Positions 3,240 through 22,128 of a stretch of 32,000 bases of DNA are shown piece by piece. The notes beneath the pieces are model-generated. The model saw nothing but the letters and a program-made list of their open reading frames with translations. It was not told the DNA's origin and did no database searches. The DNA is from Mycobacterium leprae TN (GTDB lineage: Bacteria; Actinomycetota; Actinomycetes; Mycobacteriales; Mycobacteriaceae), in the NCBI RefSeq assembly GCF_000195855.1, contig NC_002677.1, forward strand, positions 3,210,001 through 3,242,000. The letters are read 5' to 3'. The position numbers were made by a program, and so were the translations under genes. How positions within the stretch are numbered: the stretch's first letter is position 1; the number at the start of each line of letters is the position of its first letter.

Positions 3240-4618
3240 ATGATGGAGCTCTGCATACATATGTTCGGGATACGGCTGCCGATGCGTGTGCTGTCCACTG
3301 CGCACCATCATCATTGCGGGACAACTATCGGTGATTGCTCTCGTCTTCACCCTAGGCACTTGTGGTGTGCATTGACGTCACCAACTATCAATACAGTCAA
3401 CTCGACCGTCGCCTTGATTGAGTCAACAGCCTTGGCAATATAGACACACTGCTCAACAGAGTGCAACAGACCATACTTAATCGGCCCACATCGGAGAGTA
3501 ACCTAGTAACTAATACATGGTACATGCATTAGCGGAGTGACTGTATCAGTACCCGACGGATATCATCCTGCCTAAACTCACAGAAGGATATTCGAACACC
3601 GCCATCAACGGCGTGCAATACCGCGTCCGTACCTTCTCGGCGGGTCCGGCCTCAATTGCGTTAGCAGCACCGTTAGCCGAAGCGCAACATCGGATAAACG
3701 AACTGCATTCACGGGTGTTTTGATCTGTGCCAGTGTCATAGACGGAACAGGTCTAGTAGGTTGGGTGATCTCGTTCATCATGTTCAATCCTTCCCTCCTG
3801 CTAGCCCAGCAAGCTCGTGCCATCAATGTCCAGCGCGGTTCAGACGAAGTTCAGGTACGCAGCGTGCGTGGAAGCCATCGAGATCGCCGAGGCTAGTCTT
3901 AAGGGAGTACTGGACCGCATCGGAAACGAGCAAGAGCACACCAAGACAGTGCTAGAGGTGGCTCGTGACTTTGTCGACGTCGCCTCACACGAACTGCGCA
4001 CTCCGTTAACCTCGATGCGCACTAACTTGGGGGTGTTGGCCGTCCTGGAGTTAGTCTCCGAGCAGCGTGAGGAGGTAATAAATGACATCATTCGCACCCA
4101 AAACCGGATCTAAGCGACATTGACGACGCCTGAACGGCTGGCACAGGGTGAACCTGACCACCATCGACAATTTTGTCCCGTTCGATGTCATCGAGCTTTT
4201 GGATCGCGCCGCGCACAATGAGCTTGGCATCTAGCCGGGATAGTAAGTGCGGCTGGTGCCCTCGCCCATGATACTGATGGTGGGGTTGCCCACCGGGCTG
4301 CAGCTAATTATCGATAACGCCATCCCCAACGCGGTTAAGCACGATGGTGACACCGAAATCCAGCTCATCGTGAGCAGTTCCCGTGAAGGCGTAGAAATCG
4401 CCATCGACGGCAGCGGCGTGCTAGAAATCGAACGCGCCGCAGTCTTCAAGCGCTCTATCCGCGGATCAACAGCATCGTCTTCAGGACCCAGCTTAGGGCT
4501 GGCGCTGGTCATTCAGCAGGCCGAGTTGCACGGCAGGAACGCGTCTCTACACACCAAGCCGATAGATGGCACGGGACTTTTATCGAGACTGGCTGACAAC
4601 AGCCATAATACCACTTGA
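3240..4618 (+). pseudogene. sensor histidine kinase (PrrB/TcrY-like), multiple stops and frameshifts
   Basis: H-box ARDFVDVASHELRTPLTSMRTNLGVL has its His codon at 3988-3990. N-box is GLQLIIDNAIPNAVKHDG, G1-like box is IAIDGSGV, and G2 box is GPSLGLALVIQQAELHG. The upstream sensor-loop segment reads LPKLTEGYSNTAINGVQYRVRTFSAGPASIALAAPLAEAQHRINELHSRVF followed by TGA. There is an in-frame TAA at 4111-4113, a frameshift near 4150 (RLAQGE / LTTIDNFVPFDVIELLDRAAH), and three stops at about 4231-4245. Confidence 0.75.
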
Positions 4619-5103
4619 GTAGATGGTGTCGGTCATCGAAGCCAGGGAATCCGGCAAAATGTTATAATGTTATGTGGCTTTACGATGATTCACTACGGCG
4701 AAACCTGTTGAGTCAACAATCAAACAAGACGTGGGCCGCGTAAAACAGGAAGTTCAGCAGGACCAGAGCCAAGTCCACAAAGACGAGGCTGCGTAGCAGC
4801 GCTGAAACAGCTTAGCTCGTTACTGTAACTGACGAGTTAGTTGCCTTAGTTGATCACCCTGGCTTGAACAAGGTCGTCACGAACTGGTTATTCCAATTCA
4901 CTTAACGTAAATTTTTCTTGCTATGCAAGCTAAATATTTTGGTAGAGAATAAATTTCAGTAAATCTGGAATTCACTCTCCAAGCCGCGCGATGAAGCACT
5001 AGAAGTGCCACTCAAATAAGCCATCAGAATTAATCTAGTATACATTTCGAGGACTTACATCGACGTTCGTTCAATGTAAGGCTTTAAAATATATAGAAGA
5101 AAC

Positions 5104-5630
5104 ATGACCGACATGATGTACAGAAAAACTCACCGGCCTTGTTGTTATTGATCTGTACAACGATTTTATTTCCGAGGGCAGCAAGATATAGAATCGTCTG
5201 AAATAGTGTCGCTGAAACCAACCGGTACGCTCCACACACGGATAAATTTCTTACTGCCGCACACAAAGTCAATATAAATTTTTTTTCTACGCACGGCGCT
5301 GGCGAAATCACCTAACTACTACGCTACATAATAATATATTTATATTTAGCTAGTCTAAAGAGCTGCATGGTCACGTTGGACCTTCGAGTACAGAAACTGT
5401 GGCGAGTAGAGTCATTTCGAGTTTATACTTCAATCGGGTTAAATTATTTTCCAAGCATATCAGTGTTTCAGTAGTTTCACCAACACCAATTTCGATCTCC
5501 AGATCAAAAACACGGGATCCAGCAATTCATAATTGTGGGAATTATAGAGCAAAACTGTGTCTAAATAACCGTTCGCTACGACGCCAAAATCGGCTACAGA
5601 ATAACGGCGGTCAAGGACATTATCACATAG
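5104..5630 (+). pseudogene. isochorismatase-family (cysteine hydrolase) gene relic in AT-rich DNA
   Basis: At 5126-5188 the translation is KLTGLVVIDLYNDFISEGSKI*, the family N-terminal motif (ALLVIDxQNDF). At 5473-5516 it is SFTNTNFDLQIKNT. After a -1 shift, 5517-5627 reads IQQFIIVGIIEQNCV*ITVRYDAKIGYRITAVKDIIT*, matching the consensus sxFxxTxLDxxLrxxGIxxlIixGxxTxxCVxxTxRDAxxxGYxvxxvxDaxa, including the catalytic-Cys position. At least 2 frameshifts and 3 stops are present. Confidence 0.65.
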
Positions 5631-6242
5631 CTACTATGATATGTAGATATATACCGCTCTTGATGTCAATATCCGGAACTATTTCGCCGCTATTATCACC
5701 GGATAATTAAGTCATCTAGAAAATTTCTCAGCTAAAACTGTCGTAGTATTATAAAAGATTGAGCAGCGACACCTCACTGGCCCTGACCGCCAGAAAGAAG
5801 GATTCCGATCCTGGCAACGATTGCCAGCCGGTCCGCTGCAAAATGGATACGGGCACATCCACCAAGGACGCCGGGCCGATGCCAGTAACAACGGGGAGCT
5901 TCTAAAATACTAACAGACATACAGTCCACGCAGCTCGTCGTAGGCAATGCAACACAGCTCCCGACCGGGTATAAGACCGTCGATCAAGGAGTAGCTGTCA
6001 ACGATCAGATGCGCCCATTAACAGTTACAGTGGCCGCGATCACGATCCTTGGGGTCTTGCTGTGAGTCGCGGCGACGGTGATTATCGAATCAGTTGTCTA
6101 CTTCCCTGTTACTCGAACGGCGGCGTGAGTCTTCACCACCATTAAGGTGGTCGTGGTAACGCTACTTGCCACAGTGGTAAGCATTCTTACGCTGTTGGTG
6201 GCACCGTTGTTCCCGATGATTGTTTGTCACGATTCCTGCTAG

Positions 6243-7080
6243 CATTTTCGCGATGCTACCGGTATCACAGTGACGATCGGGCAGTTGGTCAGCGTCGCTG
6301 GACGGCAGTGTATAATCGCGTTCGATAGGGCATTCGCGGTCGGAAGTCCCTGAGCGATGGACAAGCTAAATAATCAGGAGCTCATCGTCGAAATACCTCC
6401 AGCAGTGGGTATGCCGTACAGCCAATCGGCGGCTTAAACTTCGATGTGGAGTCGCGGTCGCGGGTCAATCTCGCAGAGCAAATGAAGCACCGCCCAGGTG
6501 ACTTGAGCGGCGGTCAGCAACAGCGCTGCGTTACTGCTGATCGCCGCTCACACTGGATCCGGCCTAAGATCATTGTCGACGAACCAACCGCGTACCTCGA
6601 CTTCAACCAAATGGAGGAGGTGCTACAGCTCATCCGCTCACGCACGCAGAACGAACGGAGCCAACAGTGTAGTAATGATTACGACCCATGACAATCGAAT
6701 GTTGCCGTTGGCCTACCGGGTAATCGAGCTGGTATCCGCGGTTGCGTAAACGAATCGGCCATTCGAAACAATGCATATGAAGGCCGGTGCCGTGTTGCTC
6801 AAGCAGAGCACAATAGGCAAGCGTATCTACGTGGTATCTGAAGATAGATTCGAGATTATGTGCGAATTGGCCAACGGCGGTAAGGACTTTGTCAACATGA
6901 CTGGCCCTGAATAATACTTCAGCAAAATCGGCGTACTGTTTCACTTGCCACACTCGGCTACCGTGTTCGCCTGCACCGATACGACGGCCGTCAGCTACAC
7001 GATGCCCAGCTTTCCTTGAGCGGCTCGGCGTGACACAACTGACCGATGCCATCGAGGACCATGACACTATCAGCGACTGA
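6243..7080 (+). pseudogene. ABC-transporter ATP-binding protein fused to a C-terminal cyclic-nucleotide-binding domain (Rv0073-like architecture), relic
   Basis: ABC signature and Walker B read DLSGGQQQR...PKIIVDEPTAYLD (LSGG starts at 6503). The H-loop region in another frame reads VVMITTHDNRMLPLAYRVIELV. The Walker A region is degenerate (ITVTIGQLVSVAGRQCIIAF has no GxxGxGKS). At 6790-7010 the translation is GAVLLKQSTIGKRIYVVSEDRFEIMCELANGGKDFVNMTGPE*YFSKIGVLFHLPHSATVFACTDTTAVSY, a typical cNMP-binding beta-barrel (G..l..qGd.g...Yvv..G.v.v ... G.yFGE.all...pRsATv.A.t). Hydrophobic fragments at 5990-6240 may be remains of the cognate permease. Confidence 0.65.
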
Positions 7081-7719
7081 TAACCGCATAATTCTGAAGA
7101 TAATTAAAGGACCGTTCGTTTTTGTCAAAATTTGCAATTAAAATTCTCGATTTCCATGGCGGGTAGCTGGAAAGCAATTGAACCGCGACCATTACGACGC
7201 GCTATGCCGGCCAGGCATGTACATCAAGCACTGGCAATGTCAACGAACCAATCGTGGAACCGTTGACGGGTCGTCCATTTACCGCCCTGAATCAAGCGAT
7301 CTCACTCTGCAGACGCTGGATGGCACGTTCGACAAAGTTGGGAGACGAAGGCGGCATCGGACCCGAGATGCGGTGTCCAGAAGACGTTGAAGCACTGCAC
7401 GTCGTTACGAACTATACTGGCATGGAACATCAAAAACGGGATGGATAAAGGCGACATCTAAAGCTAACGGAAGTTAACTGAAGCCTTAGGGCAAAAAAGT
7501 GCAACTAGCTGGTGATAACAATTTGGTAACTAACCTCTAATTAATAGCTGTCTCGGTGCCCTCCAGCATCGGAAACGCCGCCTTGATCAAGGTCCGTCAG
7601 ATTGACGCTTCATTGGAAATGAAAGAGGCTCTCTCTTGTGCTGACAAGCGAGCTACATTGCGACGTTTTCCTCTAGCTCAAAGATAAAAAGTTAATAGGC
7701 TCACCGCCGACATCGTGGT

Positions 7720-8907
7720 GGCGTCCGGGTGCGGTCAAATCAAATTTGACTCTCCAGGGGGCAAAGAACAAGTCGCAAAATACAATCGGCTTCTCGAAAT
7801 CGCTCCGGTAACACCAGATCGGCTGTTGTGACTGCCAGCTACTCATTGTAGCTTGCCTACGGCCGCAACATACCTGCCGTAACGATGGCCACCGCTATTC
7901 ATACTGCCACGTAACCGAAAGCAGCACCGTTTCCAGCTTTGGCAACCACTGTCGCCACACTAGGTCACCTGTTACCTGGACCGCGCCGAGCACGTCGATG
8001 GCCCGATACCACGAAGTCGATTGGAATAAGATTAGAAACTACGGCTGACTGTGTCGGCCCAGCAAGCCCCGATACCCGCTTCGGCCAAGGCGAAACCCAG
8101 TGTTATCACGAACACACTATGCGGTATACTGGCTCGTAATCCATAAGAGATTCTACAGAGACGATGTACAGGACTGTACACGGTGCGAAATACCGCGCGC
8201 AGTTTTGTTTGGTCACGGCACCCCGCCGGTTAAGCCACCATCACAACTACGTTGCGTGCGTTACCTAAAGGATCAACAAGGTTGTCGCGAGATAGACGAA
8301 CTCGAAACACCGCAGCCGGCAACATACCGACGTGCCGCAATGCTTTGAATTCCAACCGCCGTGGTGCTGATTCGGATACGGCATCAACCCGCCTACAGGC
8401 CCTCACATGCCGATTACAACGATCGCCACCACTGCGGAAGAGATCAAGAATAGTGGCCAGATACAGCGCCGGTTGGAGGCCTAAACAGGCCACCAACCCA
8501 GTGGAGCACAACAGGCACATCACCGCGCCCAGGTGGTCGTCGGCTCATTTCAAGCCCGAATGCCCGGAACGTGGGCTCATTCCAGACTCAGCGGCGCCAA
8601 CAGTGCATCGCAGACCAACGAATGCACAACGACACGCAACCCCAGCCTGGGCCACACCGTTACTGCCCTACCGATAGCTCCTGCTGCCAGCACGGCGCTC
8701 AGAGAGCTACCCGACGGTATTAGTTCCCCGCTTATTTGCAGAGGGCCACCGAACAGTTTCATTGACTCTGTCGAATACACCGAGCGCCGCTGCCAACGTG
8801 CCCGATGTTCCGGTGAAAAACGTAGGCAGCACCAGCATTATTATCTCATAGCCGGTATCTGAGAAGGAGCCCGCCACCCCACGACACCAACACTGGGAGT
8901 GAGTCAT
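7720..8907 (-). pseudogene. MFS-type transporter relic
   Basis: Minus-strand fragments read MTHSQCWCRGVAGSFSDTGYEIIMLVLPTFFTGTSGTLAAALGVFD and LDLFRSGGDRCNRHVRACRRVDAVSESAPRRLEFKALRHVGMLPAAV. The latter resembles the MFS loop2-3/TM region GxGxRxPxRDAlladxvpxxxRGxAFGfxRamDtxGAv. Further hydrophobic fragments downstream are spread over three frames with many stops. The 3' boundary is a guess. Confidence 0.4.
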
Positions 8908-10699
8908 GTCTGTTTAGATTCGTCGAATTCCTTACGAGGCGCATTGGACTCAACGCTCATGGCCTGGACATGGCAGTGGCCGAGACTCATGCACAATCGA
9001 ACCGCAACACACCCAAAAAGGACCCTAGGAATTCACTAGCTATTAACTAAATCGCTCTGTCACCGCACTTCGTCACGACACAAATCTGTCGCATTAACAG
9101 CGGATGTCGCCGTCTATGAACACCGAATAAGCAAACAGGTACCTATACGGGAGTAATGGCCGGATATGCCCGAAGCGTTCGGCCCATGTCAAACTATCTT
9201 AGCCCGGAATTATTACATGTACGCCTAGCGTAACCTAGTACGCTACTGACCGAATTGCTGTCATTCGAGAGCTGCAGGGCCATTAAGAGGACGTTTACTG
9301 CGGTTGCTCTGAATCCCCATTCTCGCTGCCGCTCACCAGCTAGCCACAAAAATCACCACCCACTCTAGGGAGGCTGGTTCGAAATACAAAAAAACCGCGT
9401 TTCGTTAATCGACGTGTATTTTACTTTATTTGATGACTGCTAAGGATTTGGTCGTGATTATATAGCACTCCATCAGGTCAGGCAGATGGGTTCAACTCCT
9501 GCTTGATGTTTGCCGCCTTAGTCGTGTTCACACAGTAACACAGTCATTCCTGCGATGCTAAGCGCGGTTATAATCGTCGACTCAGTGTGCGAAAAATTCA
9601 CTACACAGCCATAAACCGCAGTGCGAATTTGCATCGGGACTAGTCGATCCAACCGCAACTCCACAAAACATGCAGCAACGTGGAAGACGTGGTTAAATCC
9701 GACCGCGAAGCGATCATTTTCGCATATCCCAGCACAAGTGGATACCGCTAAAAACATAGCTGATTTCTGTTGCCTTCTGATCCAGCCACCCCACGGCGAG
9801 ATGCGCCTGCAGCTGTGTGCAATTCTCAACGTGACACGGTATCCCATTGGCTTAGGCACGAGCCCAGCCACTGCACAATCTTTACCACGTCATTTCTTAC
9901 ATTACTGATTCACTAGCACAAAATTATGCGCACAACAAGCCGTAAACATCCGCGCTAAAATACATAGCGCAGCCAACATGGTTTGGGTATTTTTTTCTGC
10001 TGCCCTTAGTCGCTAATACTGACTAGGATAATAATCCCGTGTCTGACCCCAGAATTATACACAAAAAATCTCATGGTAAAACGCGCCAGCAACGCCGCAA
10101 AAAATTTCAGAGAAAATTTCTACCCCAATTACTAGGATATCGAATCGACAGTCCTCGACCCAAAGATACAGCCGAATACTCTCTTTCTCCGAAGATGGTT
10201 TCAATAGCGACAGCACAACGATTTTCAATCTATCTCCGCGCACTTGACACACACATGAATAACATCAACCCTGCCACCGTAAATGTGCTAGATACACCCA
10301 AGCATTCGGTTACAAATACAATCACCTCGAATACACGTGCAACAACTAACAAACACCCCCGGTGGTATCCGTTACAATCGCTGGATATTCTATAATTCCG
10401 TGCTACAATCTGATTTATGCACGTGGCAGCTCCAGCGAACTGCCCTACCCGTAACCGACTGACCAACTGTTATAATGCCGTAACGATGGCAGCAATGGCG
10501 TGGATGTATGCAATGATGGACAACCGTCTTCCGGGTCAGACCGGCGATCCCTAAAACACAACCACGCAATGTTGGGGGGCGCCGCCGTACAGCGCTAATT
10601 CGATTAAAATGGTAGGCACTCTCGCCGACGGCGGTGAGGATCTATAAGGATTCGAGGATGGTCGCGTCAATAAAGGACCGTCAAGCCAAAGCAGGCCGC

Positions 10700-11575
10700 G
10701 GCAAGGTCCAATGACACCAGCCGGGGCCTTGGCACCGCAGTACGACAATCCAAAGCGGTTCGACCGAGGATCCGGTTACAGAGCGGAAACCGACACGGAC
10801 AAAGACATTCCGTACGGCTAGCGTGAGACTAGGTGAGCACATCGATCATAGACAGCAAAATCGGCCAGCCGGTCCAGTCAATCCACTAGGGAGAACGTGC
10901 ACGTTCCCCCGATCAATTCAACACGAACGGCGGAGATGGTCGCAGCCAGTCGCTGGTCGGCGCCGAACGCAAAGAACTGGGCGTCGGCCGACCACGCGAT
11001 GAACATTGGTTTGTCGAGCTAAGGTAGTCGGGACGCAGCCCCGGTGGGTCACCCCGTGCGCATAGAGATATAGATAACGAAAATTGACGTAGGTCTCCGA
11101 CAATCGCGGAACCGGACAGCGCCGACCACATAACCGGAATGACAGTCCTTAACAACGTCTTCGACTTGGCCGACAAAAATAACCGATTTGAGGCTACTTG
11201 AGGACCATCGGCAGAACGTGTTCGAACGCATCGCCACTCGTGATAACAAGGGCACCCAACCACTCGGAGTAGTGCGTTATGTTACGACACCGTCGGTATC
11301 GTAGCTGATCAACAAAGAAATTCTCTAGGCCAAGGGCAGCAAAAGCACCAGCTACGATGCTGGCGACGCCAGTGATGGTTCGATCAGCGACAGGGCACAG
11401 CAGGTCAGCATGTGCACCCAGCGGCCAGGTAGGGACAATGCTCCGCAGGCCGAAGTTGCTAAGCCGTTCGACTGACCTGCCGCCACAGTTCATTGCCCAT
11501 CATGTAGTCGTGCACAAACAAGACAGGCCTGTCATTCTCCGACCCGGTTGCTTCATGTATGGATAGCTCCGGCAT
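10700..11575 (-). pseudogene. alpha/beta-fold hydrolase relic, divergent from the TetR gene
   Basis: From the ATG at 11575 the translation is MPELSIHEATGSENDRPVLFVHDYMMGNELWRQV. After a frameshift it continues VERLSNFGLRSIVPTWPLGAHADLL.PVADRTITGVASIVAGAFAALGLENFFV...EWLGALVITSGDAFEHVLP. This pattern (PVLfvHG...W..v...L...g.R.iaPt.PLGaH ... lgLe.v.lVG ... TscDaFe) is typical of an alpha/beta hydrolase. The nucleophile-elbow region is scrambled and several stops follow. The 3' end is approximate. Confidence 0.5.
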
Positions 11576-11590
11576 TAATGTCGATCGTCG

Positions 11591-11632
11591 ATATAATATA
11601 TATAATATTTAGATAATATATATATATATATA
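11591..11632. repeat. AT-only low-complexity tract with dinucleotide microsatellites, (AT)4A at 11596-11604 and (AT)8A at 11616-11632
   Basis: Direct reading gives atataatatatataatatttagataatatatatatatatata. It lies in the 119-bp divergent intergenic region between the hydrolase relic (ATG at 11575, -) and the TetR gene (ATG at 11695, +). Confidence 0.9.
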
Positions 11633-11669
11633 GGTGCCTCTCCAATTCGAGATACTGTTGCAGACAGCT

Positions 11670-11688
11670 TGTTTGTAACTTACAAACA
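11670..11688. promoter_or_regulatory. candidate TetR operator: perfect 19-bp palindrome TGTTTGTAA-C-TTACAAACA
   Basis: The 9-bp arms are exactly complementary around a single central C. The palindrome ends 6 nt before the TetR ATG (11695), inside the divergent promoter region. This is the classic geometry for TetR-family auto-operators. Confidence 0.5.
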
Positions 11689-11694
11689 GATTGT

Positions 11695-12310: not shown

Positions 12311-12419
12311 CCCGGCACATACGTCATCGCTCCACCAGGACTCGTAGTCACAGAGGCAAGCGTGGCGAACTGTTACCACGCGCTGCGACGAGTTCGCTCT
12401 TGTGATGAGATCGGCGGCT

Positions 12420-15404
12420 ATGAACATCAAGGTCACGCTGGAGCACCGCACTAGCTACACCTTTAACCGGCTGGTCCAGGTGTGTCCGCATGTCGTTCGG
12501 GTACACCTGGCACCACACTCACGCCCGCCTATCGAGGCCCACTCGCTGCAGATCGAGCCAGCCGGCCACTTCATCAACTGTCAGCAAGACACGCTAGGCA
12601 ACGGCTTGACCCGACTGGTCTTGCCGAATCCTATGCGCCGACGGAGCATAGGATTCGGGCTCATCACCAACCTCAAGATGATCAGCCCGTTCGACTGCTA
12701 TATCGAAAACTGGGCCGAGACGTGGCCTGCCACGGCCAGGTCAGGACCGACATTCACCTATCCCGAAGCGCTAGCCGAGGACCTCAAGCCTTACCTGCGG
12801 CCCGTCGACGAAGCAGGCAACCGATTCGTCGACAATGAGCTAGTGTGGGCATGGATTCGCAACTTCCCGGTGCCAGATGGCATCCGAACCATCAACTTCA
12901 TCAACTTCCTGGTCGCGTTCAATCAAGCGATGAACGCCGAGGTCAGCGATATCGTGTGCATGGAACACGGTGTCCCGACAACGGATTTCACGCTGCGCAC
13001 CGGCATCAGCTCGTGTCGGGACTCGGCATGGTTATTGGTATCGATTTTATGGCAGATGAGATTAACCGCCTGGGTTGTGTCCAGCTCAGCTACCTCGTAC
13101 AACTGCCCTCCGATATCGAGGCACTCAACGAGCCATCGGGGCCTGCCACCGAATTCACCTACTTGCACGCCTGGACCGAAGTGTCCATCCCCTGTACGGG
13201 CAAAATCAGGCTGGACCCGATCTCGGGGCTGTTCGCCAACGAGGTCCGCATACCGTTGGCAACCACACCACATACTGCGTCGGCAGCGCCGACCAACGGC
13301 TCAACCGACCCGTGCGAAGCGGTGCTGGACTTCCCTAACATTGTCCACCCAGGTCCAAGAAGACCCGCACATCACGCTGCCTTACTCCGACGTGGCGTGG
13401 CACGCGATCTGCGCGATAGGCCAGCACGGCTACCAACGGCTGACCGTCGGCGGGAAGCCGACAGTCGTCTTGGTGAACATCCACCCGAACAAGGGCCGCA
13501 AAGAGTGGACGATGGTCGCCAAAAGCCCGTCTAAGCGCCAGCCGGCATCCGATCTTACTGCCCGGCTGAAGGCCGCCTGGGCGCCGCAGGGGCTGATCCA
13601 TTTCAGACAGGGCCAGTGGTATACGGGAGAGCCGTTGCCGCAATGGCAGATTACACTGTATTGGCGCACCAAAGGACAGCCACTATGGACCAACGATGCA
13701 CTGCTGACTGATACCTGGAAAGCCGGTCCAAGCGAACGAAACAAGACAACCCTTGAAGATAGCGAGCTAGCCCACAAGGTGCTAGCCCAGGCAGCTGACG
13801 GTCTCGGGTTACCACTCACACAAATGCGGGCAGCATACAAGGATACGCTGCGCCGTCTAGCAGCTAAAGTGCGGATTCCGAGCGGCGCCCCAGTGCAATT
13901 AAGTGACGACCGCGGCCCCACTACCCCGGACAGCGCCGTCAACCGTGTCGCACTGCTTACGCGTCTCGAGGAATCAGTCACCTTGCCGGACGCGTATATG
14001 CTGTCGCTGCACAGCCGTGACGACAACCTCAGCTGGGTCCAAGCAACCTTGCAGCTGCACCGCGGCTGCATTGTGCTGATCGAGGACGCTTCGCTGGCAG
14101 GCTTGCTGCTGCCGCTGGATTCGATCAGCTGGCCACGACCGCATGTGTCGTTTTACCTCGATCCGATGACCTTCTGGCGCGCGTGGTCGGCGGAACCCAA
14201 CACCGCCGCAGCTGTGCTCGAGAACCCCGACTCCGCACCGCCTACCGCGATGGTGGCCGAAATTCGCGGTGAGTTTCTGTCTATTTTCCTATCGCCTACC
14301 GAAACGCTCAAACACTTCGTCAGTCTAGTCTCCGGAGGCGAGACCGCTGCCGCGAACATTGGCTGCCCAGTCGTGATCGAGGGTTACGGGCTGCCGACGG
14401 ACCTGCGGCTGAAGTCGATGTGCGTCAAGCCAGGGCAAGTCGCGGCCGCTGCCAGCTTTGCTGCAGAACGCCAGCAGTTGGAAACCTTTTATGCACAGGC
14501 AGGAATGGCTCGGTTGTCGACGGAGTCGTTTGACGACAGCGGCGCACACGGCAGAACCGGCGGCAATAACCACATCACACTCGGCGACGTCACACCGCTA
14601 CGGCGTCACCCCGATCTGTTGGTCTCGCTGCTGACCTGCTGGCAACGACACCCTTCGCGATCCTACCGGTTTGCGGGGCAATTCGTTGGCCCCATATCGC
14701 AGGCACCGCAAGTTGACGAGGTGCGCGCGTTTCGGCACCTGGTTGTCGATATCACCGGTAACATCCACCACGCCGAGTTTTGCATCGACAAGCTTCACAG
14801 CCACGATAACACCCACGGCAGGCTCAGTCTGTTAGAGTTACGTGGCTTTGCGATGCCGCTGTACCTGCAAATGGTGATAGTGCGTTGGCTGCTGGTTCGC
14901 TCGCTGGTGGCGTGGTTTTGGGAGGAACCGCTGCGCGCCTCAGTGATACGCCACGGCACCAATCTGCACGGCCGATACCTGTTTCCCCACTTCGTTAGCC
15001 ATGATATGGCTGCCATAGCAACCAGCCTGCGTGAACACGGCCTCGCTTTCGAGACCAACTGGCTGTACCCGTTCATCGAATTCCGCTTACCGCGCCTCGG
15101 CACTTCTGTCTTCCACGGTGTGGAGATCGAGTTACGGAACGCGATCGAACCGTGGACTACGTTCGGCGAGAAGTCCACCGTAACCTCGCGCGGTGGCTGC
15201 ACTTATCACGCCAGCCACACCGGGTCAAAAGCAATCAACACTGGCAGCACCCTCGAAGCCCAGGCACGCTGGAGCCGTCGCTTTGAAGCCACCGGTTTCA
15301 TCCCAAGCAAAATTACTATGTCCTGCATCCGGAAAAGCAAGTCAGTATCTCCACCGACATCGACGCGCCTAGCATCCTCAACCTCAGACGCGTCCGCACC
15401 GTGA
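12420..15404 (+). pseudogene. large transglutaminase-family protein (Bact_transglu_N + transglutaminase core + DUF2126-type C-terminal region; Rv2566-like), frameshifted
   Basis: The N-terminus is MNIKVTLEHRTSYTFNRLVQVCPHVVRVHLAPHSRPPIEAHSLQIEPAGHFINCQQDTLGN. The catalytic-Cys motif GISSCRDSAWLLVSIL is in the main frame. The rest of the core, YLVQLPSDIEALNEPSGPATEFTYLHAWTEVSIPCTGKIRLDPISGLFANEVRIPLATTPHTASAAP, is readable only in another frame (about 13090-13350). The main frame resumes at QVQEDPHITLPYSDVAWHAICAIG. Downstream DUF2126-like motifs are GRTGGNNHITLG, RHPDLLVSLLTCWQRHPSRSYRFAGQFVGPISQAPQVDE, ITGNIHHAEFCIDKL, and LLELRGFAMP. It is about 145 codons shorter than the roughly 1140-aa Mtb protein as I remember it. 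Confidence 0.75.
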
Positions 15405-18082
15405 TACGGTATATGGTATCCACAGAAATGGCACTGAGCAACAGTGCATCGTCCTCGGCGCGTTTCAATCACTCTGACGCCGACCGACTGCTAGACGGGT
15501 ACCGCGCCGCCCGCGCCCAGAAAGTTCTGTTCGACCTACACTCTGCCGGCACGGCCGGCCCGGGAATCGGCTACGATGAATTCGTCGACGACTCTGGCTA
15601 CGTGCGACCTAGCTGGACCGAGTTGGCGGATGCGATCGGCGGCCGAGGTCGGGCCGGACTGCATCAATTGCGTTCGGTGATGCACCGACTAATCTACAAC
15701 GATGGCATTACCTACACCGGGATCGACCCAGGAGCGCTCACCAATGACCACGGTGTGGTGCCGGGGCTCTGGCGGCTAGACTCGTTGCCGCTGTTGGTCT
15801 CTGCGACCGATTGGGAGGTATTAGAAGCCGGGCTGATTCAGCGCTCACGCCTACTCGATGCCGTACTCACAGACCTGTACGGGCCACGCCGCTTGCTAAC
15901 CGACGGCGTGCTGCCGCCAGAACTGCTGTTCGGCCACCCTGGCTACGTGCGTACCGACCACGGCATCGAGGTTCCTGGGCATCACCAGCTCTTCATGCAC
16001 GGCTGTGACCTCAGCCGGTTGCCAGACGGCGGGTTCCAGATCAACGCCGACTGGACGCAAGCGCCCTCGGGGGCCGGATATGCGCTGGCGGACCGACGTG
16101 TGGTCGCACAAGCACTTCCTGACCTCTACGAAACGATCGGGCCGCGACCGACTACACCGTTTGCTCAAGCACTGCGGTTGGCACTGATAGACGCAGCACC
16201 CGAGGTCGCTCAGGACCCAGTAGTTGTAGTGCTGAGCCCGGGAATTTACTCAGAAACCGCCTTCGATCAAGCGTATCTCGCAACTTTGCTGGGTTTCCAA
16301 CTGGTAGAAAGCTCGGATTTAGTGGTGTGCGACGGCAAGGTGTGGATGCGTTCCTTGGGCACACTTAAACGCGTCGACGTGGTACTGCGCCGCGTCGACG
16401 CGGACTATATGGACCCCCTGGATCTTCGTGCCGATTCGCTGTTAGGCGTGGCCGGTTTGGTGGAGGCACAACATCGCGGAACGGTGACCGTTGTTAACAC
16501 ACTAGGCAGCGGCATTCTAGAAAGCGCAGGGCTACTGCGGTTCTTGCCCCAACTCTCCGAGCGTTTACTCGGAGAAACCCTATTGCTGCCCAGCGCACCC
16601 GTCTACTGGGCAGGAATCGACAGCGAACGCTTGCACCTGCTGACGAATTTGTCGTCGCTATTAATCAAATCCACCGTAGGCGGAAAAACCATTGTAGGAC
16701 CATCACTTTCGTCCGGACAACTGACTGAAATGGCTGCTCGAATCGCAGCTAAGCCGTGGCAGTGGGTAGGCCAAGAACTGCCGCAATTCTCAACTGCACC
16801 CACAGATCATGATGGCGTGTTGTCACCGGCTAGCATCGGTATGCGAGTGTTCACGGTTGCCCAACGCAGCGGCTATGCACCGATGATCGGCGGTCTAGGG
16901 TATGCCCTGGCATCTGGAATTGATGCCTACTCTCTGAAAAAAGTTGCAGCAAAAGATATTTGGGTTCTTCCAACGGAGCGCGCACGCACCGAGGCGATAA
17001 CCCATTCATTATTGGAGTCGCCGCCAATGACGGGAACAGGCACCTTGGGGGTGAGCTCGCCGCGGGTACTGTCCGACCTGTTTTGGATGGGGCGCTATGG
17101 TGAGCGCGCCGAAAACATGGCACGGTTGCTCATTGTCACCCGCGAGCACTACCACGATTCCCGGCACCGCCAGAACACGGAAGAAAACGCGTGCTTGCCG
17201 GTGCTGATAGCGGCGCTTGGTAAGATCACCGGGACCGACACCGGATCCGGTGGTCAGGCTGACGTGATAGCCGTTGCGCCCTCGACATTGTGGTCGCTCA
17301 CTACCGACCGTAATCTGCCAGGGTCTCTGGTGCAGTCGGTGGACGGGCTAGTATTGGCAGCAAGAGCGGTGCGCGCCCAATTGTCCCGCGACACCTGGAT
17401 GGTGCTCAGTGAAGTAGAGCGCGCTATGGTGCACGAGACCGAGCCGCCGGAGTCGTTGGTCGAGGGCGACGCCCTGCTGGCGTCGGTGCAAGCACGGACA
17501 CTTGCTGGCATGCTGACACTGTCCGGATTAGCCGGTGAATCGATGGTGCGTGATATCGGCTGGACCATAATGGACATCGGAAAGCGCATCGAACGCGGGC
17601 TGGCGTTGACCGCCTTACTGCATGCCACGCTTACCGACGTCCGTAGCCCCGCGGCTGAGCACAGCATCATCGAGTCAATCCTGGTAATTTGTGAGTCATC
17701 GGTCATCTACCAGCGCCGCACGGTAAGCACGATCGATGTTGCCGTTGTCGCTGAGCTCATGCTGTTCGACGCGACGAACCCGCGGTCACTGGTGTATCAA
17801 CTGGATCGGTTACGCGTCGATCTCGCTGACCTTCCGGGCTCGTCGAGGTCATCACTCCCGGAGCGGATGGTGGCCGAGATGAGCACCCGGCTGCGCCGGT
17901 CCGCTCCCGCTCAGCTGAAAGAGGTCAGTGCCGACGGGCGCCGCTATGTGCTGGCTGAGCTACTCGCCGCGGTCGACACCGCGTTGCGTGACTTGGCCGA
18001 CGCGATCACCGCAACCCAATTGGCGGTGCCCTGCGGCATGCAACCACTATGGGGGCCTGACAATCGACAAACCATGTCGTAA
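15401..18082 (+). CDS. circularly permuted ATP-grasp (type 2) + alpha-E domain fusion protein (Rv2567-like), apparently intact
   Basis: Uninterrupted 893-aa ORF. ATP-grasp-like motifs include GITYTGIDPG...WRLDSLPLLVSATDWEVLEAGLIQRSRLLDAVLTDLYG, VVVVLSPGIYSETAFDQAYLATLLGFQLVESSDLVV.DGKVWMRSLGTLKRVDVVLRRVDADYMDPLDLRADSLLGVAGLVEA, and KDIWVL. The alpha-E start is VLSDLFWMGRYGERAENMARLL. The GTG start overlaps the upstream stop (GTGA at 15401-15404). In-frame ATGs at 15413 and 15428 are alternative starts. Confidence 0.85.
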   Translation: MIRYMVSTEMALSNSASSSARFNHSDADRLLDGYRAARAQKVLFDLHSAGTAGPGIGYDEFVDDSGYVRPSWTELADAIGGRGRAGLHQLRSVMHRLIYNDGITYTGIDPGALTNDHGVVPGLWRLDSLPLLVSATDWEVLEAGLIQRSRLLDAVLTDLYGPRRLLTDGVLPPELLFGHPGYVRTDHGIEVPGHHQLFMHGCDLSRLPDGGFQINADWTQAPSGAGYALADRRVVAQALPDLYETIGPRPTTPFAQALRLALIDAAPEVAQDPVVVVLSPGIYSETAFDQAYLATLLGFQLVESSDLVVCDGKVWMRSLGTLKRVDVVLRRVDADYMDPLDLRADSLLGVAGLVEAQHRGTVTVVNTLGSGILESAGLLRFLPQLSERLLGETLLLPSAPVYWAGIDSERLHLLTNLSSLLIKSTVGGKTIVGPSLSSGQLTEMAARIAAKPWQWVGQELPQFSTAPTDHDGVLSPASIGMRVFTVAQRSGYAPMIGGLGYALASGIDAYSLKKVAAKDIWVLPTERARTEAITHSLLESPPMTGTGTLGVSSPRVLSDLFWMGRYGERAENMARLLIVTREHYHDSRHRQNTEENACLPVLIAALGKITGTDTGSGGQADVIAVAPSTLWSLTTDRNLPGSLVQSVDGLVLAARAVRAQLSRDTWMVLSEVERAMVHETEPPESLVEGDALLASVQARTLAGMLTLSGLAGESMVRDIGWTIMDIGKRIERGLALTALLHATLTDVRSPAAEHSIIESILVICESSVIYQRRTVSTIDVAVVAELMLFDATNPRSLVYQLDRLRVDLADLPGSSRSSLPERMVAEMSTRLRRSAPAQLKEVSADGRRYVLAELLAAVDTALRDLADAITATQLAVPCGMQPLWGPDNRQTMS

Positions 18083-18089
18083 CCAGCAT

Positions 18090-18410
18090 GCTCAACCAAA
18101 AGCTTTGGCCGCTAAGCAATCTCATCCCCTAGCTAAGAAGGGAGGCACCTGGTTAACCACAGCATTGGTCCTGGCCGGCAGCGACCCCGCGTACAGTTGC
18201 AAAACCCCTCGCTGTGTGTGAGCTCCGGCCTGGACTCATCCAACAACGCGTTGCCAACATCAGTGAGTTGGATCGAGCAGCGGGACCGATCGATGAGATT
18301 CTTTTCAGGTGGCGTTCCAGCTTTCGAATCTGCTGGCTCAGCGGTGGTTGGGTGGTGTGGAGTCGCCCGGCGACCGCGGTTACGGAGTAACGCAACTCTG
18401 GATCTTTCAT
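18090..18410 (-). pseudogene. LysR-family regulator, N-terminal HTH fragment only (frameshifted and truncated)
   Basis: From the ATG at 18410 the translation is MKDPELRYSVTAVAGRLHTTQPPLSQQIRKLERHL, which fits the LysR HTH pattern (LRYFvavAeelhft.AA.rLh.sQPaLS.qIr.LE..LG). It continues in another frame as IQLTDVGNALLDESRPEL (the LT.aG..ll..ar.il pattern). The effector-binding domain is absent because the relic runs into the 3' end of the 893-aa gene. Confidence 0.5.
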
Positions 18411-18556
18411 AGAAAGGATATAATAAAGTGTACAGATATGTCTTAGACAGTGATGGTGTGGCAAAATTAATTTTCACAACGAGGCTAGATCTACTGAGAA
18501 AGGCATCCAGTAACCGCTACGACCACTAAAGAGCTCGATCTCGTCAAAGTATTACT

Positions 18557-19350
18557 GTGACCAATAGCGATGACTTGTCGGTGGTGCTAACTACGTCGGA
18601 GCACGTCGCTGCGGCCTTGGAGATATTTGGCCGGAGACCCAAAAGAACTAGTGGCGCGCATTTCACCACGATGGGCAACCGGACGGGTGAGTTGCTGGCC
18701 GTCAACATGGTACTTGCAATTTGCAAGCCCGAATATGTACCGGTATTGTGGAGGTCCGTTCTTGTACTTACCGATGCTCGGTTCAATTGTAACACCATTA
18801 AGGCTACCACTCATGTCGTCGCACATCTAGTTGTGGTCAATGGCGCCGTAGTCCGCTGGATTGGGATGAACGCTGGCGGCAACGTGGTTGGTTCGGGTAA
18901 TTGTTCCAGCGCCACCATCGGCCGCGCGCTTCGACTGATCTTGCTCATCGTAGGCGGAGGCATTCCGACTAAATTTGACAAGAGCACCCTCGACACACAT
19001 TCTACAGCTCCGAGAACGAAGAGATTAACCCGCGGACGCCGTATCGCGTCGAACATCGACGTACAGCACCCGGCGGTGATAGATGCCGAGGCACCGCAGA
19101 GCGTGAGCAAAGTACATTTCGGATGACTCCCAAGGAATATTGCGTTTCATTGTCTCGGCACCGAGCATCATCGCGTCCTTCGGTTGGTCCCACGACGAAG
19201 TTCGTAGCTACCTGTGGCTCAACGGCACCAGCGAATGGGACGACGTCAGTTACGACAATCGTTATGTCCTTCTCGAAGGACGCACCTATAATCACAATAT
19301 TACGAAGATGATGTACGACGCAAGTTTAGCAGACAAGTGTCAATCGTCTT
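18557..19350 (+). pseudogene. conserved-hypothetical gene relic, divergent from the LysR fragment; family not recognised
   Basis: The 189-aa ORF has a protein-like stretch: ELLAVNMVLAICKPEYVPVLWRSVLVLTDARFNCNTIKATTHVVAHLVVVNGAVVRWIGMNAGGNVVGSGNCSSATIGRALRLILLIVGGGIPTKFDKSTL. A plausible continuation lies in a different frame (19140-19330: APSIIASFGWSHDEVRSYLWL). The frame switching implies decay. I cannot name the family. Confidence 0.3.
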
Positions 19351-20313
19351 TATTCCTTACGATATACATCTGTTCGCGGTTAACAGAGCCGCTGGTCGAT
19401 ACTCGGCGTTCCTGCCGAGGTGGATGTATCGCGACCACACCGGTACTGCGCGCCATTAAAGATAACCAAAAAAATTGTTACCAGCAGCGTGGTAATCCAC
19501 GAACTTACCTGCTTTAACGGCACCTGCCAGTTCTAATATCCACCCATGAAATAGAGTGACAGATGACAGATGTTATCTAGCACCTCTGCGGCGTAATCGA
19601 GATAGCAACCACCTCTGCGACGTCCTGCTCCTACAGCACCAGGGGTCTATGCCTTGGGAGTACTGAAACATCAAGCGGAATGTACTCTCCTTCTTCCGAC
19701 GGCTGTTTGTTGTGTATTGTCCCGCTCGAGCGGGCTTCTATCTGCACCGCACTTCTTATGCACACCGCAGATTTGACGCGTATAATCCACTGAATACACC
19801 TGTTGTCAGCATACGATGTTGCAACTCATTTTTCGTAGAAGTGTCGTAGTCATTGGATCGAATGATCAACTATAGATATAGAATTCTGAATATGCGAGAT
19901 CGATAACCTTTGATTATCGGTAATAATCTTGCATCTGCATGACTTTAGTCAAGAGTGGGATTATAGTTATTTTCGCTATACGTAAAGAAGAGTGCACTGG
20001 GCGGCAATAATCTGTTACGCGGTGCGTTGCATAACTTTGCGGAAGGTTGTAGCGGTCTATCGGTTCCTCTCTTCGACTGAGAGCTCGTCTGTCTTGAAAT
20101 TTAAATTATAGTGACTGTAAGGTTTAAAACACGCCCTTGAGGAAACCGGTTGAATAGGTTCTGTTAGCTCGGCACGGCGTTGTGATACTCTTCGTTAACC
20201 ATGATCCATCCTAATATGTCAATAATACTATTTATCTTATCTAGACTAATTAGGTTGCCAACAGATCACTGCACTTTTGTCAATCTTCGCGGCACCTCGA
20301 CAACTGATGTCCA

Positions 20314-22128
20314 TTACCTTGCCATGTTGGTGAATCGCGACAAGTGCAATTGATGCGCGACAGTGACTGTCTTGGTTGGGCCGTTACGATGCTTGGCGAG
20401 AATCAAGTCCGCCTCGCCACCACGCGGATCGTCGCGATCAAAGGCATCCGGACGGTGCAGCAAGATCACGACGTCGGCATCCTGCTCTAGGCTTCCCGAC
20501 TCCCGCAAATCAGACAACATCGGCTTCTTGTCGGTGCGCTGCTCGGGACTACGGTTCAGCTGGCTGATCGCCACTACCGGGAGCTCAAGTTCTTTGGCTA
20601 ACAATTTAAGATGGCGGGAGAACTCCGAGACTTCCACCTGTCGCGACTCGAACCGCTTGCCTGACGTCATCAACTGCAGGTAATCGACCACAACTAGCTT
20701 CAGGTTTGTCTTTTGCCGCAGCCGGCGCGCCTTGGCACGGATCTCCATCATGGTCAGGTTCGGTGAATCGTCGATATACAGTGGCGCCTCACTGATTTCG
20801 CTCATCCGCCGCGCCAGCCGTGTCCAGTCATCGTCGGTCATTCGACCCGAACGCATATCGGCGAGCTTGATTTTCGCCTCTGCCGAAAGCAACCGCATCA
20901 CGATCTCGGACTTACTCATCTCCAGAGAGAAGATAACGCTCGCCAGGCGATGCTTGATCGAACACGACCGCATGAAGTCCAGCCCAAGGGTCGAGTTGTG
21001 CGTTGGCACCATCCCTCGACCAGCCAGATACAGATGAGCAGCATTGTCCACCTCGACACACCGCACCGGAACGCTGCGCACCCGCCGCACTGAGTCGATG
21101 CACAGCACCGGAGCCATGAATGCAGCCGTGGTCAGTCGCCCAGCGTGGCGCGGTGTCGACCCGGCCGCAGCAATAATGTCCAGCCCACAACGCAACTGAG
21201 CCGACGTCCGGATACCGTAACTCGTCGGCCATTGGTGCTGGGCGTCTGCGACAATGACGGTACCGTCGGAGAACTCGATCTCGTAGCACGGCCGGCCCAG
21301 CATGACCTCGGTCGCGGCCACCACGCGCGTCGGTGCTTCGTCAACGGCCAGCAACTCGTCACCGACGGCAACATCACCCATCGCCGTCCAACCAGTCGGT
21401 GTGGGCAGCGGCGTGTCCAGCGCGAGCGCCTTGCCCACACCCGGACGAGCCGCCACGATGATCATCTGTCCCGGATGCAAACCGTTGGTTACCTCATCGA
21501 GTTCGGTGAAGCCAGTCGGCGCGCCACGCGAGATACCCCCATTGGAAGCGATGGCATCGAGGTCATCCATCGTCGGCTGCAGTAGATCTTCGAGCGGTAC
21601 GTAGTTCTCAGAAAGCCGGCACTCGGCTACGTCGTAGATTTCTGCCTGCGCGCGGTCGACCACCTCGGCCACGTCGGCACCCTCAGCGCCGGCGTAACCG
21701 TACTGCACCACCCGTGTGCCGGCCTCCACCAGTCGACGCAGCAGCGCCTTTTCAGCGACGATGCCCGCATAGTAACCTGCATTGGCGGCAGTCGGCACCG
21801 TCGAGATCAGAGTGTGCAGATACGGCGCACCACCGATCCTGCGCAACAATCCGCGGCGGTCCAATTCGGCGGCCACCGTCACCGCATCGGCCGGCTCTCC
21901 TCGCCCGTACAGATCTAGGATCGCATCGTAAACATTCTGGTGTGCTGGACGATAAAAGTCACCAGAACGCAGCCGCTCGAGAACGTCAGCAATGGCATCC
22001 TTACTCAGCAGCATCCCGCCCAACACCGACTGCTCCGCGGCTAGGTCCTGCGGTGGCTGACGGCCAAAATCTTCACTGGGTGGAACTGCATCCATACCTG
22101 AGTGCGCCAGATCATCGACGACCGCCAT
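20314..22128 (-). CDS. dnaB: replicative DNA helicase DnaB, interrupted in the P-loop by an in-frame mini-intein
   Basis: I place the start at the ATG at 22128 (MAVVDDLAHSGMD...), with GGGGGAGG upstream. The 40 extra codons of the track ORF look spurious. The N-terminal domain reads QPPQDLAAEQSVLGGMLLSKDAIADVLE. Walker A is split as IIVAARPGVGK / intein / STLGLDF. Walker B is LKLVVVDYLQLM. The C-terminus reads EADLILAKHRNGPTKTVTVAHQLHLSRFTNMAR. Confidence 0.95.
   Translation of the reverse strand: MAVVDDLAHSGMDAVPPSEDFGRQPPQDLAAEQSVLGGMLLSKDAIADVLERLRSGDFYRPAHQNVYDAILDLYGRGEPADAVTVAAELDRRGLLRRIGGAPYLHTLISTVPTAANAGYYAGIVAEKALLRRLVEAGTRVVQYGYAGAEGADVAEVVDRAQAEIYDVAECRLSENYVPLEDLLQPTMDDLDAIASNGGISRGAPTGFTELDEVTNGLHPGQMIIVAARPGVGKALALDTPLPTPTGWTAMGDVAVGDELLAVDEAPTRVVAATEVMLGRPCYEIEFSDGTVIVADAQHQWPTSYGIRTSAQLRCGLDIIAAAGSTPRHAGRLTTAAFMAPVLCIDSVRRVRSVPVRCVEVDNAAHLYLAGRGMVPTHNSTLGLDFMRSCSIKHRLASVIFSLEMSKSEIVMRLLSAEAKIKLADMRSGRMTDDDWTRLARRMSEISEAPLYIDDSPNLTMMEIRAKARRLRQKTNLKLVVVDYLQLMTSGKRFESRQVEVSEFSRHLKLLAKELELPVVAISQLNRSPEQRTDKKPMLSDLRESGSLEQDADVVILLHRPDAFDRDDPRGGEADLILAKHRNGPTKTVTVAHQLHLSRFTNMAR
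20995..21429 (-). other. DnaB mini-intein, 145 aa, no homing-endonuclease domain; Ala1 with a Trp/Cys/Thr (class-3-like) signature
   Basis: The extein junctions restore GVGK|ST (Walker A GxxxxGKS/T). The intein begins ALALDTPLPTPTGW (GCG codon at 21429-21427) and ends GMVPTHN (AAC at 20997-20995), followed by Ser+1. Block B reads VIVADAQHQW, block F reads VRCVEVDNAAHLYLAG, and block G reads VPTHN. Confidence 0.85.

Follow-up and report, generated by a model that had tools for sequence, protein, structure and literature searches.

Inteins of class 3 were defined by the absence of an N-terminal nucleophile, by three co-varying residues (Trp at B:12, Cys at F:4 and Thr at G:5) and by a Ser or Thr at position +1 (Tori et al., 2010). 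The DnaB intein of Mycobacterium leprae (hereafter the Mle DnaB intein) has been studied by mutagenesis (Tori and Perler, 2016; PMC5222942), and here we describe this element and its host gene within a 32 000-nucleotide stretch of the M. leprae TN chromosome (NC_002677.1, positions 3 210 001–3 242 000, forward strand), which we call the window and whose positions are counted from its first nucleotide. In the published numbering, the block residues of the intein are His65 (B:10), Trp67 (B:12), Cys124 (F:4) and Asn145 (G:7). Changing Cys F:4 to Ala abolished both splicing and cleavage, while Ala at His B:10, at Trp B:12 or at Ser+1 left precursor only; Cys at +1 retained splicing, and Ala at Asn145 (G:7) caused the branched intermediate to build up (PMC5222942). 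The conclusion of that study was that the Mle DnaB intein uses the class 3 pathway. For Thr G:5, the Ala mutant of the prototype intein from mycobacteriophage Bethlehem spliced in a temperature-dependent manner (PMC2807308), and a DxxH variant of block B has been described in the literature on DnaBi1, the class 3 intein of M. smegmatis. The Mle DnaB intein, its class 3 chemistry and its catalytic residues are already known, and are published for the exact sequence treated here.

The gene is read from the minus strand (ATG at 22126–22128, stop at 20314–20316), and its 604-residue product is 100% identical to the M. leprae replicative DNA helicase DnaB (DNAB_MYCLE, CAC32212.1, CAR72780.1, BBC17872.1, AWV48884.1). 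In the assembly collection, 116 blocks, complete genomes included, encode exactly this protein, and in each of them the gene lies downstream of ssb-rpsR-rplI, just as it does in the window. The insert comprises 145 stop-free codons in frame with DnaB (ALALDTPLPTPTGW...VADAQHQWPT...VPVRCVEVDNAAHLYLAGRGMVPTHN) and makes up residues 234–378 of the precursor, between the upstream flank MIIVAARPGVGK and the downstream flank STLGLDFMRSCS (Table 1). It separates the Lys from the Ser of the Walker A motif A-x4-G-K-S (ARPGVGK/ALALDTP...VPTHN/STLGLDF), and joining the two flanks yields A-RPGV-G-K-S-T. Pfam recognizes both the DnaB N-terminal domain (E = 1e-33) and DnaB_C (E = 7.5e-95), the latter in two matching stretches, the better of which restarts at residue 379, position 33 of the 255 in the profile; the helicase domain is therefore interrupted exactly there. 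From that point the match runs over residues 379–601 (profile positions 33–255) with no break, and the host protein, split at 233/379, is colinear with the conserved domain once the insert is removed. At the H4 motif (site a), translation and Pfam revealed no second intein, and the sequence is continuous (...LRESGSLEQDAD...). The G+C (guanine plus cytosine) content is 65.3% in the intein, 59.1% in the dnaB exteins and 55.9% over the whole window.

Table 1. Coordinates of dnaB, its intein and the signature positions in the window. Invariance refers to the 81-row family alignment described in the text; block numbering follows PMC5222942.
Feature	Coordinates	Strand	Basis
dnaB coding sequence, 604 amino acids plus stop; DnaB precursor with one intein	20314-22128	-	Translation, Pfam, exact protein match
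N-extein, DnaB residues 1-233, ending ARPGVGK (Walker A)	21430-22128	-	Translation, family alignment
Mle DnaB mini-intein, class 3, 145 amino acids	20995-21429	-	Translation, PDB homologues, family alignment, literature
C-extein, DnaB residues 379-604 plus stop, uninterrupted	20314-20994	-	Translation; Pfam DnaB_C unbroken
Block A region, Ala1-Gly13, ALALDTPLPTPTG; Ala1 non-nucleophilic	21391-21429	-	A1, L2, L4, T6, L8, T10, P11, G13, W14 invariant (81/81)
Cys48 codon; non-catalytic residue whose counterpart in M. smegmatis forms a disulfide with the catalytic Cys	21286-21288	-	Cys in 79/81
Block B, Gly56-Thr69, GTVIVADAQHQWPT; Asp62 (B:7, DxxH variant), His65 (B:10), Trp67 (B:12)	21223-21264	-	PMC5222942 numbering; D62, H65, W67 invariant (81/81)
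Variable linker, about residues 85-112, between blocks B and F	21094-21177	-	Sole gapped, poorly conserved part of family alignment
Block F, Pro121-Ala136, PVRCVEVDNAAHLYLA; Cys124 = F:4, initiating nucleophile	21022-21069	-	C124 invariant (81/81); published C124A
Block G, Gly139-Asn145 plus Ser+1; Thr143 (G:5), His144 (G:6), Asn145 (G:7), Ser+1 (G:8, also Walker A Ser)	20992-21015	-	P142, T143, H144, N145, S+1 invariant (81/81)
Ala1 codon (gcg)	21427-21429	-	Read by hand in raw sequence
Trp67 codon	21229-21231	-	Read by hand in raw sequence
Cys124 codon	21058-21060	-	Read by hand in raw sequence
Thr143 codon	21001-21003	-	Read by hand in raw sequence
Asn145 codon	20995-20997	-	Read by hand in raw sequence
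Ser+1 codon	20992-20994	-	Read by hand in raw sequence

We conclude, with a probability of about 0.97, that this segment is the known Mle DnaB (DnaBi) class 3 mini-intein, an endonuclease-less element at site b that removes itself from the precursor. Its sequence and insertion site, the identity of the host protein with M. leprae DnaB, the signature residues and their invariance across the family are established here, while published work on this intein has shown that it splices and that it needs Cys124, His65, Trp67 and Ser+1. A preliminary description of the sequence had proposed a 145-residue insert that splits the Walker A motif (GVGK/ST), opens with Ala and carries a Trp two residues past the block B His, a Cys in block F, a Thr before the terminal His-Asn and a Ser at +1, and it had deduced class 3 chemistry from them. 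The translation and the flanks bear out the split, position 1 is Ala, all the other residues are in place, and the mechanism proves to have been published already for the Mle DnaB intein (PMC5222942). Its statement that an M. leprae DnaB intein of such a size is already catalogued was likewise correct.

Homology of the insert to known inteins is supported by structures and by genomes. A phmmer search against all PDB chains returned full-length matches to 6RIX (E = 2.8e-68), 6RIY and 6BS8 (E = 5.9e-58), all named as ‘replicative DNA helicase’ chains, together with weaker N-terminal matches to the gp41-1 intein. Because the best matches extend over the full length at such E-values, they are not due to chance, and the alignment to these three solved structures predicts blocks A, B, F and G and the HINT fold for the insert. 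Global identity is 76% to the M. chimaera intein and 67.8% to that of M. smegmatis, the second value reproducing the published 68.0%. A scan of one genome per species gave > 530 relatives, of which the best 80 were retained and aligned with the M. leprae sequence (81 rows). These 80 homologues, from Mycobacterium, Mycolicibacterium, Rhodococcus, Nocardia, Promicromonospora, Nocardioides, Kribbella and other genera, have identities as low as 54%; every one of them is inserted at the same DnaB site (...G-K/A-L...T-H-N/S-[TV]...), the P-loop allele known as site b and represented in the window by GVGK/ST, and all 80 are 130–160 amino acids long. Besides the invariant positions of Table 1, Val122-Arg123, Leu133-Tyr-Leu-Ala136 and, in the N-extein, Ala-8, Ala-7, Arg-6, Pro-5, Gly-2 and Lys-1 are the same in every row. 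One published residue differs here: Tori and Perler (2016) give the native N-extein flank as Phe-Gly-Val-Gly-Lys, whereas the window (21430–21444, minus strand) and all 80 homologues have Pro at -5, and the Phe is probably a slip in the paper.

As for the class of the intein, the published block residues are those found in the window, and Thr143 falls at G:5 by arithmetic, two residues before Asn145 at G:7. His65 and Trp67 are held in the motif AQHQW, Cys124 in VRCVEVD, and Thr143-His144-Asn145 in PTHN. Position 1, which is Cys, Ser or Thr in class 1 inteins, is Ala in all 81 sequences; Trp67 stands two residues past His65, Cys124 aligns with the catalytic Cys118 of 6BS8 and Cys124 of 6RIX, and the C-terminal His-Asn is followed in every row by a nucleophilic Ser at +1. 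An Ala at position 1 together with a +1 nucleophile would also be compatible with a class 2 (KlbA-like) route, by which Ser+1 itself would attack the N-terminal junction and Cys124 would have only a structural role. However, class 2 inteins lack the Trp-Cys-Thr triplet, which is present and invariant here, and in the Mle intein the published C124A change stopped splicing and cleavage altogether, a result that separates class 3 from class 2 and makes the latter very improbable. The preliminary description had named two observations that would speak against class 3, namely a Trp, Cys or Thr lying outside B:12, F:4 and G:5, and a block F Cys mutant that still spliced; the published blocks place all three residues at exactly those positions, that mutant neither splices nor cleaves (PMC5222942), and the Cys-to-Ala and Trp-to-Ala experiments it suggested, already in print, favour class 3.

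On this class 3 assignment, splicing begins with attack by Cys124 of block F on the Lys(-1)-Ala1 peptide bond, which gives a block F thioester branched intermediate; the block B residues His65 and Trp67 assist, and Asp62 stands in for the usual Thr. The N-extein then passes to Ser+1 by transesterification, forming the standard block G branched intermediate, after which cyclization of Asn145 frees the intein and an O-N acyl shift rebuilds the intact GKST P-loop. The unspliced precursor would presumably be inactive as a helicase; a dependence of helicase activity on splicing is plausible because the +1 Ser is the P-loop residue that coordinates Mg-ATP, and because a P-loop intein in RadA has been reported to abolish ATPase activity.

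The element qualifies as a mini-intein, since only about 28 variable residues lie between the conserved parts of its 145. This short linker region is the place where full-length inteins hold the homing endonuclease. Neither the size of the insert nor the Pfam scan leaves a homing endonuclease domain in it, in agreement with the preliminary description, which had excluded one by size and had gone on to call the element fixed in a ‘minimal genome’; the M. leprae genome is reduced (3.27 Mb), not minimal.

Nothing in the sequence contradicts a class 3 intein, and the points that can be held against one concern host efficiency, experimental setting and the silence of Pfam. In E. coli, an MBP-intein-paramyosin precursor containing the Mle intein spliced at 15°C only (PMC5222942), and a MIG reporter with this intein left substantial unspliced precursor and showed C-terminal cleavage; these splicing data come from reporter or model precursors rather than from M. 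leprae itself, where splicing may be conditionally regulated in vivo. Finally, a scan of the 145-residue insert against Pfam-A (2025 copy) gave zero families at E ≤ 0.1, which reflects the models and not the insert. Since Pfam offered no family, the blocks were assigned from the PDB homologues and the published numbering. That Pfam is silent on an insert 76% identical to a crystallized intein means that domain-based annotation would miss a class 3 mini-intein of this kind.

The genome scan gave no locus of 100% identity; the closest relative in it is M. lepromatosis, whose intein shares 92% amino acid identity with that of M. leprae. At the nucleotide level the two species are 90.8% identical in the intein and 93.6–94.9% in the exteins; codon differences number 25 synonymous and 11 non-synonymous in the intein, 36 and 7 in the N-extein, and 33 and 2 in the C-extein. 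Eight of the 11 amino acid replacements in the intein fall in the linker (residues 85–112), which indicates purifying selection on the splicing domain, in keeping with a need for splicing in DnaB function. It is still less probable than the class 2 route that the insert (or dnaB) is a relic, degenerating like many M. leprae genes and no longer functional. In favour of a relic, the genome is pseudogene-rich, open reading frame (ORF)-poor stretches lie at 3.4–11.7 and 18.1–20.3 kb of the window, the M. leprae/M. lepromatosis lineage carries substitutions (T16A, G31E) at two sites where conservation is otherwise 96% or higher, and E. coli model precursors splice poorly or with a temperature restriction. 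Against it, the insert and dnaB keep an intact reading frame, the catalytic residues are all kept, the non-synonymous changes relative to M. lepromatosis cluster in the linker, the intein splices in two reporter systems, and the exact protein recurs in the 116 assembly blocks, complete genomes among them. We therefore rejected both alternatives, the class 2 route on the triplet and C124A, and the relic on the intact frame, the catalytic residues and the reporter splicing.

The cysteines of the class 3 intein deserve separate comment. Four are named in the literature, the catalytic C124 and the non-catalytic C48, C81 and C110, and all four match the window exactly. Splicing of the Mle intein has been reported to be reversibly inhibited by zinc, as well as by hypochlorous acid and N-chlorotaurine. 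In M. smegmatis DnaBi1, Cys48 forms a regulatory disulfide; it was called ‘non-conserved’ in the 2018 structure paper, yet all substitutions tried there abolished splicing. Among the site b inteins aligned here, Cys48 is present in 79 of 81, from Mycobacterium to Kribbella and down to identities of about 55%, the exceptions being two Promicromonospora sequences with Thr; Thr is also found in the terminase (TerL) relative from phage Petp2012. This distribution suggests that a thiol switch, or some structural requirement for Cys48, goes back to the ancestor of the entire site b family instead of being special to M. smegmatis. A further proposal, which we consider rather doubtful, is that the P-loop intein serves in vivo as a conserved thiol switch that brakes M. 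leprae replication post-translationally, with Cys48 paired to Cys124 and with splicing modulated by zinc, chlorine species and the redox state, and perhaps also by temperature.

Other residues are restricted to the leprosy bacilli or unevenly distributed. Cys81 is common to 25 of the 81 sequences, whereas Cys110 (21100–21102, minus strand) is found only in M. leprae, with Arg at this position in M. lepromatosis. Ala16 (21382–21384, minus strand) and Glu31 (21337–21339, minus strand) occur only in M. leprae and M. lepromatosis, position 16 being Thr in 79 of 81 sequences and position 31 Gly in 78 of 81. Intermolecular (high-molecular-weight) disulfide products and C-terminal cleavage have been reported for the Mle intein, and Cys110, Ala16 and Glu31 may lie behind them. 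Owing to the catalytic Cys, oxidants, zinc and hypochlorite interfere with splicing, which may couple replication to host stress; and the intein, absent from humans and lodged in the P-loop of a helicase that this human pathogen cannot do without, has been discussed as a drug target.

Elsewhere in the window, coding capacity is uneven. An 8.3-kb stretch (3360–11690) has no ORF of at least 150 amino acids and contains a G+C trough of 38.8% at 5001–5500. It includes fragments of a sensor histidine kinase in separate ORFs, with an H-box (ASHELRTPL) in 3817–4113 (plus strand) and an ATPase-like motif (DNAIPNAVKH...) in 4247–4618 (plus strand), which look like a frameshifted pseudogene. Towards its end lie an (AT) microsatellite of about 8.5 units (11616–11632) and a perfect 9-bp inverted repeat (tgtttgtaa-c-ttacaaaca, 11670–11688) that is likely to be an operator; it ends 6 nucleotides short of the start codon (ATG, 11695) of a TetR-family gene. 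The TetR gene is followed by two intact genes, a DUF2126/transglutaminase-N gene (12402–15404) and a circularly permuted ATP-grasp/Alpha-E gene (15401–18082), whose stop and start codons overlap. The region downstream of dnaB (18083–20313) is again ORF-poor, with 45–53% G+C and a strikingly AT-rich patch at about 20100–20260; its 189-residue ORF (18557–19126) had no Pfam match, and the region is probably decayed sequence. Rfam and tRNA scans of the window were both empty.

Set against known systems, the element of the window is the Mle DnaB intein of M. leprae TN (InBase entry; PMC5222942, PMC6195587, PMC7360933, PMC8557812), the same 145-residue element at the P-loop site, and its sequence is without difference from that literature except for the stated cloning flank. 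Class 2 inteins, such as Mja KlbA, share Ala1 and the lack of an N-terminal nucleophile but have no Trp-Cys-Thr triplet, carry Asp at F:4 and use the +1 residue to attack the N-terminal junction directly. In the comparison of insertion sites suggested in the preliminary description, phage class 3 inteins usually lie in a P-loop, and the M. tuberculosis DnaB intein is at a different site. The latter (Mtu DnaBi), like Msm DnaBi2, resides in a mycobacterial DnaB and has Ser+1, but it occupies site a, in the H4 DNA-binding loop, and is a class 1 intein with Cys1 and a homing endonuclease.

Phage relatives resemble the Mle intein in chemistry and differ from it in size. The DnaB intein of mycobacteriophage Bethlehem (the class 3 prototype; PMC2807308) and the phage TerL inteins have a non-nucleophilic first residue, the Trp-Cys-Thr triplet and Ser or Thr at +1, usually in the P-loop of a helicase or ATPase; unlike the Mle intein they are full-length elements (Asn341 is the last residue of MP-Be DnaB, and the Petp2012 TerL intein has LAGLIDADG motifs) and they occupy other host proteins. 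In the Petp2012 terminase (gp13) intein, the N-terminal splicing half is 49% identical to Mle residues 2–70. This intein opens with Pro, reads SASHGW in block B and VKC in block F and ends LTHN/T; its blocks B and F are separated by a much longer insert, in which LAGLIDADG-type motifs (LGLWLGDG..., LLRGLIDSDG) are found. The relationship to this full-length, motif-bearing intein places the Mle intein, which has no endonuclease, in a lineage whose phage-borne relatives do contain one, as the literature has argued. Altogether, 399 phage records, 299 of them from mycobacteriophages, match the N-terminal half of the Mle intein, mostly in genes annotated as terminase or ‘HNH endonuclease’.

The nearest characterized counterparts are mycobacterial. 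M. smegmatis DnaBi1 (Msm DnaB-1; 6BS8/6OWN) is likewise a class 3 mini-intein at the site b P-loop, with the DxxH form of block B and 68% identity, but it is only 139 amino acids long, with a shorter linker and a single non-catalytic cysteine (C48), and its host DnaB, unlike that of M. leprae, has a second intein at site a that is of class 1 and contains an endonuclease. M. chimaera DnaB1 (6RIX/6RIY; PMC7664689) matches the Mle intein in length (145 amino acids), in class and in its catalytic Cys124, and is 76% identical to it over the full length; the differences lie mainly in the linker, and it is without Cys81 and Cys110.

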